Positions 30,256 to 37,107 of a stretch of DNA of 64,000 nt are shown one piece after another. The DNA lies in assembly GCA_964650645.1 (NCBI GenBank), contig CAZYUH010000001.1, forward strand, positions 475,099 through 539,098. Reading direction: 5' to 3'. The notes beneath the pieces were generated by a model. It did no database searches. It was given only the letters and a program-made list of their open reading frames with translations, and was not told the DNA's origin. The DNA is from an uncultured Candidatus Saccharibacteria bacterium. Lineage in GTDB: Bacteria > Patescibacteriota > Minisyncoccia > Phycocordibacterales > SBAW01. Position 1 is the stretch's first letter, and the number at the start of each line of letters is the position of its first letter. Made by a program: the position numbers and the translations under genes.

Positions 30256-33200
30256 ATGCGAGAGCAAAAGCATTTCTCCCGGTTCCGCGCCCCCCGCGTC
30301 GAGACCCCCAACCTCGTCGAAGCGCAGTCCGATTCCTATAACTGGCTCATGGACAAGGGCGTCCGCGAGACTTTCAAGGAGTTCACCCCCATAAAGGACT
30401 ACTCGGGCAAGAAGTTCGACCTCGAGTTCCTCAAGATCGAGCTCGGCGAGCCGAAGGTGGACGAGCACTACGCCAAGGCGCAGAAGCTGACGCTCGATAT
30501 CCCCGTGCGCGCCACGGTGCGCCTCGTCAACAAGGTGGCCGGCACCGAGCGCGAGCAGGAGATATTCCTCGCCGACCTGCCGCTCATGACCGACCACGGC
30601 ACCTTCGTCATCAACGGCGTCGAGCGCGTCATCGTGCCCCAGCTCGCGCGCTCCTACGGCGTCTTCTTCACCTCCGAGGAGGTGAAGGGCAAGCGCCACT
30701 TCGGCGCCAAAGTCATCCCGGCGCGCGGCGCCTGGATCGAGATGGAGGCCGAGCCGACCGGCGACATCGCCGTGCGCATCGACCGCAAGCGCAAGTTCCC
30801 GGCGGCCTCCCTCCTGCGCGTCATGGGCGCGCATTCCGACGCTGACCTCAAGGCGCTCTTCAAGGGCAACGAGCTCGCCATGCGCTGGATAGAGCAGGCG
30901 ATAGAGAAGGACCCGGCCAAGAGCGTCGAGGACGCCTACATAGAGATACACAAGCGCCTGCGCGACGGCGACCTGGCGACCGCCAAAAACGCCGAGGAAT
31001 ACATCAACTCCATCTTCAGCTCCGAGCGCTACGACCTCTCGCGCGTGGGCCGCTACCGCTTCAACCAGCGCTTCGGCCTGTCCCTCGACGAGAAGGACCT
31101 CGCGCGCAAGACGCTCTCCGTCGAGGACCTCGCGACCGTCATCGGCCACCTCCTTTCGCTCGAGAACGATCCGGAAGCGGTCGAGGACAACATCGACCAC
31201 CTGGGCTCGCGCCGCGTGCGCTACGTGGGTGAGATGCTCCAGTCGCGCCTGCGCGTCGGCCTCACCCACATGAAGCGCAACATCCAGGACCGCATGTCGA
31301 CCATCGACGCCGACGCCTCGATGCCGCAGCAGTTCGTTAACCCGCGCCCGCTCCAGGCCCGCATCAAGGAATTCTTCACGACCAACCAGCTCTCGCAGTT
31401 CATGCAGCAGAACAACGCTCTGGAGGAGCTTGAGCACCTGCGCACGCTCTCGGCGCTCGGCCCGGGCGGGCTTACCCGCGAGCGCGCGGGCTTCGAGGTG
31501 CGCGACGTGCACCCGTCCCACTACGGCCGCCTCTGCCCCATACACACCCCCGAAGGCCCCAACATCGGCCTCATCCTGCGCCTCTCCACGTTCGCGCGCC
31601 TCAACGAGTTCGGCATGATAGAGACGCCGTACGCAAAAGTGGTGAAGGGCAAGGTGACCGATGAAATCGTCTACCTTAACGCCGCCGAGGAGGAGGGCGT
31701 CGCCATAGCCCACGGCGCCACCCGCGTTGACGCCTCCGGCCGCATCGAGGAGGAGATGCTCGAGGTGCGCCAGGGCTCCGGCCCGGCCCGTGTCTCGCGC
31801 GACGAAGTCGACTACATCGACGTCGCGCCCGAGCAGCCGTTCTCCATCGCTACGTCCATGATCCCGTTCCTCGAGCACGACGACGCGAACCGCTCGCTCA
31901 TGGGCTCGAACATGCAGAAGCAGGCGACCCCCTGCATCGTTCCCGAGGCGCCGCTTGTCGCAACGGGCATGGAGGAGCGCGCCGCGAAGGACACCGGCCG
32001 CCTCATTTACGCCAAGGAAGCGGGCACCGTCACCGAGGCCGACGGCAAGCGCGTGAAGGTGAGGAACGAGAAGGGCAAGGAAGTCGAGTACCCGTTCGTG
32101 AACTTCGTGCGCACCAACGGCTTCACCAGCCTCCACAACCGCCCTGCGGTCTCCGTGGGCGACAAGGTCAAGAAGGGCGACCTCTTGGCGGACATCTCGT
32201 CTTCCGACCGGGGCCAGCTCGCCGTGGGCCAGAACGCGCTCGTGGCGTTCATGTGCTGGTCGGGCGCCAACTACGAGGACGCCATCATCATTTCCGAGCG
32301 CCTCGTCAAGGACTCCAAGTTCAGCTCCATCCACATAGAGGAGTTCGTCTGCAACGTGCGCGACACCAAGCTCGGCGCGGAGGAGACCACCCACGATATC
32401 CCCAACGTTTCAGAGACCAAGCTGCGCAACCTCGATGAGGACGGCGTCGTGCGCGTCGGCTCCGAGGTCCGCCCCGGCGACATACTCGTAGGAAAGATCA
32501 CTCCCAAGGGCGAGACCCAGCTCACGCCCGAAGAGCGCCTCCTGCGCTCCATATTCGGCGACAAGGCCCGCGACGTGAAGGACAGCTCGCTTCGCATGGA
32601 GAACGGCAAGCGCGGCCGCATCATCGGCGTGAAGGTCTTCTCGCGCGAGGCGGGCCACCAGCTCGAGTCGGGCATCATCAAGCGCATCCATATCGAGATC
32701 GCCCAGCTGCGCACCGTCTCGGTAGGCGACAAGCTTGCCGGCCGCCACGGCAACAAGGGCGTTATTTCCCGCATCCTCCCCGAGGAGGACATGCCGTACA
32801 TGGAGGACGGCCGCCCCGTCGACGTCATCCTGACCCCGCTCGGCGTCCCGTCACGCATGAACCTCGGCCAGATCCTCGAATTGCACCTCGGGCTCGCCGC
32901 TAACACGCTCAACTACCAGGCCATCTGCCCGCCGTTCGCGGGCGCGACCGAGGGCGAGATCCGCGAGGAGCTCAAGAAGGCCGGCCACAACGAGAACGGC
33001 AAGATGAAGCTCTATGACGGCCGCACCGGCGAGAAGTTCGAGCAGGACATCGCCGTGGGCTACATGTACATCCTCAAGCTCCACCACATGGTCGAGGACA
33101 AGATACACATGCGCTCCATCGGGCCGTACTCGCTCATTACCCAGCAGCCGCTGGGCGGCAAGGCGCAGGGCGGCGGCCAGCGCTTCGGCGAAATGGAAGT

Positions 33201-37107: not shown

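Follow-up and report, generated by a model that had tools for sequence, protein, structure and literature searches.

One reading frame for two RNA polymerase subunits: an rpoB-rpoC fusion in a clade of Candidatus Paceibacterota

The question raised by this locus is whether an uninterrupted reading frame that runs through both large-subunit genes of bacterial RNA polymerase, rpoB and rpoC, is a genuine gene of its organism and, if so, where such a fusion comes from and how isolated a case it is. The frame, referred to here as rpoBC, lies on the plus strand of a 64-kb window of DNA (the whole stretch analysed, i.e. 64,000 nucleotides of contig CAZYUH010000001.1 in assembly GCA_964650645.1; all coordinates are those of the window unless a locus is named). 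A sequence-only reading had described it as an in-frame rpoB-rpoC fusion encoding a single beta-beta' polypeptide of about 2284 amino acids (aa). Our analysis upholds the fusion, retains the single polypeptide as the expected product and sets its length at 2283 aa. Very probably, rpoBC is the gene by which this uncultured bacterium, one with a small genome, encodes the large subunits of its RNA polymerase: rpoB and rpoC have merged into one frame that is fixed in its clade, was independently derived and encodes one chain of about 250 kDa.

The gene and its parts are arranged as follows.

30256 to 37107, plus strand: rpoBC, a single coding sequence for a predicted 2283-aa beta-beta' polypeptide, with its first ATG at 30256 and its stop codon at 37105-37107
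30256 to 33393, plus strand: beta (RpoB) module, aa 1-1046, ending in LALDVEL, assigned by NF001616 and the Pfam Rpb2 domains
33394 to 33450, plus strand: linker of 19 aa, aa 1047-1065, outside the beta and beta' profiles and the PDB chains
33451 to 37104, plus strand: beta' (RpoC) module, aa 1066-2283, assigned by TIGR02386 and Pfam Rpb1 domains 1-5
33613 to 33669, plus strand: N-terminal zinc-binding motif of beta', CYCGKYRGIRYKGIVCEKC (CYCGKYRG...CEKCG), read in DNA and translation
34912 to 34932, plus strand: catalytic Mg-binding motif NADFDGD, the sole copy in the window

The listing of open reading frames (ORFs) gives one stop-free plus-strand frame from 30199 to 37107, which amounts to 2302 aa counted from a GTG, and with 2283 codons free of any stop this is not a chance ORF. 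As the start codon, ATG 30256, from which the protein begins MREQKHF, is favoured over GTG 30199 by the match to the RpoB profile (NCBIfam), which begins at residue 4, by the homologous locus L162 (about 80% identical), which begins at the equivalent ATG with MREQKYFSRY, and by the public full-length members of the protein's sequence cluster, which can be aligned from residue 1. Both subunits are complete. The beta part scores 1435.8 bits against NF001616 (cut-off 896), covering profile positions 3-1095 of 1096 over aa 4-1047, and 1414.7 bits against TIGR02013 (RpoB; cut-off 801.15); the beta' part scores 1457.5 bits against TIGR02386 (cut-off 963.5), covering positions 2-1144 of 1147 over aa 1070-2258. 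Eleven Pfam RNA polymerase domains follow each other in canonical order (Rpb2_1, 2, 3, 45, 6 and 7, then Rpb1 1-5). The active-site-proximal motifs of beta, GDKLAGRHGNKGV and EDANRSLMGSNMQKQA, are both intact, its GNKGV motif lies at 32749, and the catalytic motifs are single-copy within the window. In an alignment of 76 homologues, the cysteines of the zinc element (C205, C207, C220 and C223 in the numbering of the junction query) do not vary. All peptides that the sequence-only reading had quoted, i.e. the end of RpoB, the linker, the start of RpoC and the zinc finger CYCGKYRG...CEKCGVE, are present in the translation. The window has a GC content of 63% overall and rpoBC a GC content at third codon positions (GC3) of 0.93, which is unusually high for the candidate phyla radiation (CPR).

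What joins the two modules is a linker in which glycine, alanine, proline or serine occupies 11 of 19 residues, and the DNA around it (33380-33460) contains neither a stop codon nor a change of frame. The window protein belongs to a 90%-identity cluster of 15 proteins from NCBI, JGI and ENA. Eleven of these cross the junction, with an identity of 91.7-99.96% to the window protein, and all 11 carry the 19-aa linker without a gap. In these 11 members the linker reads MR[DGN]G[ASQ][PS]V[GA] followed by 11 further residues, with the variation confined to the N-terminal half and RKTPGAEAS constant. Homologous linkers of 19 residues are also found in P0001 (LRGANAVPTARKTTGAETA), a 452-aa fragment that is 83% identical over the junction region, and in P0007, of which the linker alone was used, since its C-terminal half appears not to be of CPR type and the sequence could be a chimera. 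The junction of L162, whose DNA is about 80% identical, is equally stop-free. In a search of PDB sequences with the junction, beta chains could be aligned to about aa 1048-1053 (residues 133-138 of the junction query), and the matches included no chain crossing the junction and no fused chain. An AlphaFold2 model of the 300-aa junction, built from a 76-sequence alignment, reached a mean predicted local distance difference test score of 50 and a predicted template modelling score of 0.34 and is too poor to use.

The same protein, identical over all 2283 aa, is called on three public contigs. One of these, L161 (a 50-kb contig, ENA ERZ27320638), shows 50 nucleotide differences from the window in 12.8 kb; it is thus a different strain or assembly and independent of the assembly of the window. 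Inside rpoBC all 15 differences between the two fall on third codon positions and are synonymous, eight of them in beta and seven in beta'. Among the cluster members, at least 92% identity is kept without gaps over 2268 aa. Both halves of rpoBC are thus under purifying selection, and the fact that the frame and length of the junction are kept while substitutions accumulate marks it as translated sequence rather than an error.

Where the fusion belongs can be read from its relatives. The named cluster members and the best genome matches are Candidatus Paceibacterota (Patescibacteria, i.e. CPR). The nearest other lineages (L001-L004, L081-L085 and L087) do have separate genes: rpoB ends in a short variable tail and a stop codon, a spacer of 10-60 nucleotides (nt) follows, and then comes rpoC. 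The fusion is therefore derived, and it is fixed in this clade of Candidatus Paceibacterota. The gene neighbourhood rpsP-KH-trmD-rpoB-rpoC-dnaG-rpoD is common to the window and the unfused relatives, which places the fused gene in the orthologous position; the missing classical linkage to rplKAJL is a trait of the clade and not a correlate of the fusion. Of 160 related loci, three (L056 from Helicobacter muridarum and the CPR loci L008 and L086) can be read without a stop from the C-terminal end of beta into the N-terminal start of beta', a proportion that is no population estimate, since these loci were selected by ranking on one long tblastn segment and all carry rpoB and rpoC in the same frame.

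Two neighbour-joining trees were computed, the first from 332 junction-flanking residues with 200 bootstraps and the second from a query-anchored whole-protein alignment, linker excluded, with 300 bootstraps. They agree, and the second gives the following support, with clade A standing for the fused clade of the window and clade B for a further group of fused CPR sequences.

Window's 90% cluster plus L162: 300 of 300
All fused clade-A sequences: 231 of 300
Clade A plus ten unfused relatives: 300 of 300
Clade B (L008, L086 and P0121): 300 of 300
Clades A and B together: 0 of 300

The lower value for clade A is due to P0001 being a short fragment. Three more fused proteins, P0003, P0005 and P0030, fall into clade B in the junction-region tree only (199 of 200). 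With the window's clade nested among unfused lineages, two separate fusion events within the CPR are the parsimonious reading of these trees.

Could the fusion nevertheless be apparent rather than real? In the nearest other lineages rpoB and rpoC share a frame and are separated by nothing more than a stop codon and the short spacer, so that a single indel or miscalled base that erased the rpoB stop or put rpoC in frame could make a two-gene genome look fused; and assemblies of this group do contain errors, with many indels of 1-2 nt in L162 and a chimeric scaffold in L163. Yet a strain that was assembled independently and is set apart by 50 substitutions has the same junction, as do 11 distinct cluster sequences from three data sources and, beyond these, the more divergent P0001 and P0007, and the linker, always 19 codons long, has taken up substitutions and no indel or stop. 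An artefact, for which the sequence-only reading had asked that the junction be checked, is thus excluded as far as the sequence data allow and must be called extremely improbable. A different doubt is whether rpoBC might be a redundant paralogue or a pseudogene, with functional separate rpoB and rpoC genes elsewhere in a genome of which 64 kb were examined. Against this speak the 15 intragenic single-nucleotide differences, all of them synonymous, the gapless identity of at least 92% over 2268 aa and the intact state of all motifs and profile positions. Moreover, rpoBC occupies the very slot that rpoB and rpoC hold in unfused relatives, and CPR genomes are small and rarely contain duplicates of core genes. 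We find this alternative scarcely credible.

It is also conceivable that the ORF is fused and separate subunits are made nonetheless, either by internal initiation near the junction, e.g. at Met1047 (ATG 33394), or by proteolysis in the linker. The first codon of the linker is an in-frame ATG, conservation is poor in the linker's N-terminal half, and the real rpoC starts of the clade have no obvious Shine-Dalgarno sequence, so that the lack of one here does not exclude initiation; an argument against internal initiation that relied on this lack was dropped for the same reason. However, Met1047 is not conserved, being a leucine in P0001, and separate initiation would let stop codons or non-triplet indels accumulate, whereas length and frame of the linker are invariant in all members. 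The fused beta-beta' protein of Helicobacter is, moreover, said to have been reported as a single polypeptide by Zakharova and colleagues in 1999. Separate products from rpoBC thus seem very unlikely. What does weigh against a clade-fixed, independently derived single-chain gene is, apart from the 64-kb extent of the genome portion covered, that expression as one polypeptide is deduced from the nucleotide sequence, that the phylogeny consists of neighbour-joining on a query-anchored alignment with monophyly of the fused clade-A sequences in only 231 of 300 replicates, and that the structural accommodation of the linker is taken from published knowledge.

If rpoBC is the single-chain gene that we take it to be, its history and function may be pictured as follows. 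The stop codon and short spacer that separate rpoB and rpoC in related lineages would have been lost; the gene, transcribed from a promoter of its own and translated from ATG 30256, would then yield a polypeptide of about 250 kDa, in which a complete beta subunit is tethered to a complete beta' subunit by a flexible 19-residue linker rich in Gly, Ala, Pro and Ser. In assembled RNA polymerase the C-terminus of beta and the N-terminus of beta' are adjacent, and such a tether should therefore be accommodated without disturbing the enzyme. It would enforce a 1:1 stoichiometry and keep the subunits close to each other during assembly, which may be of benefit to assembly or stoichiometry.

Precedent for such a tether comes from engineering, since a functional beta-beta' fusion of E. 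coli is mentioned in a preprint (bioRxiv 10.1101/2021.11.05.467461). A covalent junction between these two termini of beta and beta' is thus compatible with assembly and activity, which gives a mechanistic basis for reading the ORF in the window as functional, even though the E. coli tether is artificial, with a designed junction, and the fusion in the window has evolved and become fixed. The primary reference for this construct is reportedly Severinov et al. 1997.

Natural fusions are described in Helicobacteraceae and Wolbachia, according to PMC7483510, which cites Lane & Darst 2010 and Zakharova et al. 1999 (J Bacteriol 181:3857). The Helicobacter RpoBC (NF007172, PRK09603) resembles that of the window in being one ORF with a complete beta followed by a complete beta' and a short, non-conserved linker—the frame was verified to be stop-free in L056—and it would have the same consequence, i.e. 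subunits tethered at a 1:1 ratio. It differs in its size (about 2890 aa, compared with 2283 aa), in having large insertions specific to its lineage and in a linker (GDKVDEFGLIKPLVVGEDEKDRPR) unrelated to that of the window. With 2093.7 bits, far below the cut-off of 5372, the window protein is not a member of this Helicobacter-type equivalog, and, the two being phylogenetically remote, the fusion events were independent. Much the same applies to the fusion of Wolbachia and other Rickettsiales (NF011417, PRK14844). It has the same architecture, with a linker of similar length, 17 aa (KQNEIVIEDISHTNIAQ) compared with 19 aa in the window, and Wolbachia is likewise a host-dependent bacterium with a reduced genome; its protein, however, has 2842 aa and a linker of unrelated sequence, the window protein scores 1986.1 bits against this equivalog (cut-off 4632) and is not a member, and the origin is independent.

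Much closer are the fusions of CPR clade B (P0121 with 2246 aa, the Paceibacterota locus L008 on DATJQA010000074, L086, P0003, P0005 and P0030). They belong to the same superphylum, are likewise single-frame and encode equally compact proteins of about 2250-2285 aa, with P0121 52.7% identical to the window protein over its full length. Their linkers, however, have about 10 aa (LYENEGDRKD and relatives) and are shorter than and unlike that of the window. A common fusion ancestry of the two CPR clades finds no backing, given that they never grouped together in 300 replicates and that their linkers differ in length and sequence; instead of joining clade B, the window's clade nests among unfused lineages in every replicate. 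The fusion in the window's clade thus arose independently of those of Helicobacter, Wolbachia and CPR clade B. A literature search returned no report of an rpoB-rpoC fusion in the CPR.

On a wider scale, an exhaustive search of cluster representatives, on which, together with cluster look-ups, our counts of full-length fusions are based, found more than 20 clusters of full-length fused proteins, 2031-2846 aa in size, with mutually unrelated linkers of 0-59 aa. (A homologue search with the junction query returned proteins of at most 524 aa, missing the 2283-aa protein of the window as well as P0121, and was not used for counts.) Among these clusters are, besides the fusion of Wolbachia and other Rickettsiales, proteins of Mycoplasma wenyonii (WP_014849752.1, 2648 aa, linker of 59 aa), of a deltaproteobacterial metagenome-assembled genome (MDR1577725.1, 2846 aa) and of an Anaerolineaceae metagenome-assembled genome (MBQ6520178.1, 2744 aa), and more than 12 further unnamed clusters. 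These other natural fusions are 33-47% identical to the window protein, their linkers are unrelated to its linker, and each presumably represents a separate event. The sequence-only reading had named Helicobacter and Wolbachia and called the fusion rare. Rarity holds per lineage, while the scatter is far wider, with at least 20 divergent clusters; beta-beta' fusion is thus rare per lineage but recurrent.

Such recurrence—at least twice in the CPR and in at least 20 lineages, of which several are host-dependent with reduced genomes (Paceibacterota, Wolbachia, haemoplasmas and Helicobacter)—might tempt one to regard the fusion as favoured repeatedly by selection and not as a neutral accident. 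We regard this as a rather doubtful proposition: once a stop codon has been lost, neutral fixation in a gene whose GC3 is 0.93 explains the fusion equally well, and the enrichment of fusions in reduced genomes is no more than apparent. If selection should nevertheless be involved, the fused clade and its unfused relatives, which share the neighbourhood, the promoter and an attenuator-like leader, would form a natural matched pair that bears on whether, in minimal cells, the tether makes up for a weakened assembly of RNA polymerase or a weakened control of its stoichiometry.

Overall, rpoBC adds a solid, independently derived case to a short textbook list consisting of Helicobacteraceae and Wolbachia. 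At the same time this list is outdated, since public data contain at least 20 divergent fused clusters, two separate CPR clades among them. The fused sequences of the window's clade are themselves already public and have gone unremarked, and a fusion as such would not surprise a specialist on RNA polymerase, as tolerance of tethering is established in principle. The compact 2283-aa single-chain core could, together with unfused relatives in the same neighbourhood, serve as a convenient system for studying tethering in RNA polymerase assembly. There is also a practical side: misleading names, such as 'subunit beta'' for a protein of 2288 aa, can distort marker-gene pipelines for the CPR that treat rpoB and rpoC as separate single-copy markers, which touches completeness estimates and concatenated phylogenies.

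As for the origin of the linker, it is plausibly the old tail of beta joined to the old N-terminal peptide of beta' after loss of the stop codon and spacer. The one further hint in this direction is the alignment of RKT in the linker with M[KR]T, the first residues of RpoC in L002, L003, L082 and L085. One candidate for an evolutionary intermediate was considered and rejected, namely P0317 on L163 (ENA ERZ28563591 scaffold_40798, 5918 nt, with rpoB at 2599-5772). It seemed to be a close unfused rpoB, 89% identical, with an ATGA stop/start overlap with rpoC and with a beta tail of 10 aa and a beta' leader peptide of 9 aa that add up to the 19 residues of the linker, and in the tree it was nested inside the fused clade. 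A block-wise comparison, however, found aa 1-800 of its RpoB to be 100% identical to the fused-clade protein P0306 and aa 850-1057 to be of the L084 type. Because of this switch in identity the junction of L163 belongs to a more distant lineage, and the scaffold is chimeric. The ATGA overlap of rpoB and rpoC itself does exist, in the L084-like lineage from which the 3' part of L163 stems.

Upstream of rpoBC, the sequence-only reading had noted a consensus promoter and a leader of about 280 nt. A promoter-like site of this kind is there, the leader is closer to 270 nt, and both features recur in unfused relatives. The region contains the following elements.

29904 to 29931, plus strand: terminator-like GC hairpin with a 12-pair stem, 9 of them G-C pairs, then the T-run TTCCTTGTGG, at the end of the upstream trmD/orf93 unit
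29951 to 29978, plus strand: sigma-70-type promoter-like site TTGACA-16-TATACT, 11 of 12 consensus matches
29985 to 30255, plus strand: 5' leader (about 270 nt from an approximate start), containing blocks that are also kept in L162
30021 to 30043, plus strand: leader hairpin GTATCGA-GTGGGGGTT-TCGATAC of 7 bp, identical in L162 despite about 80% DNA identity
30091 to 30127, plus strand: attenuator-like GC hairpin, then the U-tract TTTTTCGTGTTTT, with a terminator-scan match at 30100-30114

The putative promoter at 29951-29978 lies just downstream of the terminator-like hairpin, and both its hexamers are kept in L162, where the flanks have diverged; a promoter scan found one site against 0.5 expected. 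In the unfused L002 and L082, near-consensus promoters stand 233-265 nt upstream of rpoB. Since unfused relatives have the promoter and leader too, neither is linked to the fusion. Within the leader, the hairpin at 30021-30043 is paired in both the minimum free energy and the centroid fold. Overall, the leader has an ordinary folding energy (z = -0.49); a blastn search with it against the 160 loci gave no match, and an Rfam scan of the whole window, leader included, gave no family at the gathering threshold. A GC hairpin followed by a U-tract is shared by four leaders, i.e. those of the window, L162 (5138-5375), L002 (3022-3255) and L082 (1993-2195), about 100-130 nt upstream of the start codon, with four of six pairs kept through changes on both sides in these four sequences only. 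This element resembles an attenuator of the kind described upstream of E. coli rpoB (bioRxiv 10.1101/2021.11.05.467461). On the weak evidence of these four sequences, RNA polymerase in Paceibacterota may have a transcription attenuator or an autoregulatory leader here. Between trmD and the promoter lies a 93-aa ORF (29604-29885, plus strand), which is called as a gene in L161, has no Pfam match and is followed by the terminator-like hairpin; no counterpart of this ORF turned up by tblastn at E <= 1e-8 among the first 160 loci, a set that includes the unfused relatives and lies apart from L161-L163.

Elsewhere the window is densely packed with housekeeping genes: pheT, gyrB, dnaE, an SMC-like ATPase, RNase R, rpsP, trmD, dnaG, rpoD (40623-41879), the alpha subunit of class I ribonucleotide reductase, a GH130 phosphorylase and a histidine kinase. 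Several ORFs of 370-590 aa without a significant Pfam domain lie at 10527-12305, 12406-13524 and 45345-46550, and ARAGORN found no tRNA or tmRNA gene in the 64 kb. Opposite rpoBC, on the minus strand, there are ORFs of 721 aa (30229 to 32394), 112 aa (32410 to 32748) and 1279 aa (32851 to 36690). These long antisense ORFs are codon-aligned shadows of rpoBC and not genes, since rpoBC uses the codons TTA and CTA not at all and TCA twice, at 32410 and 32851, exactly the boundaries of these ORFs. A plus-strand ORF of 1015 aa without a Pfam match (16052 to 19099) is likewise a shadow, in this case of dnaE (16079 to 19216, minus strand).

Several database records of these proteins call for caution. 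The rpoBC of L162 (ENA ERZ25039540 contig_31420, 5376-12278) is broken into seven gene calls by the small indels mentioned above, some of which compensate each other inside conserved motifs (e.g. +2 and +1); this is typical of an uncorrected long-read assembly, and its protein calls (P0002) are unreliable. A 336-aa fragment attributed to a 'Nanoarchaeota archaeon' (MEK6817497.1) is 96% identical to the Paceibacterota beta described here and probably comes from a mis-binned contig. P0015, a 'hypothetical protein' of the plant Lupinus albus (Lal_00014466, 501 aa, on a 16-Mb contig), combines the C-terminal domains of beta (Rpb2_6 and Rpb2_7) with the N-terminal domain of beta' (Rpb1_1) in a single chain that matches 97% of the junction query with 53% identity; an insertion of bacterial or organellar origin, a contamination or a merged gene model may lie behind it. 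Among the fused proteins of 2283-2288 aa, HEY4501729.1 is named 'subunit beta'' only, and MDB5225769.1 carries a double beta label.

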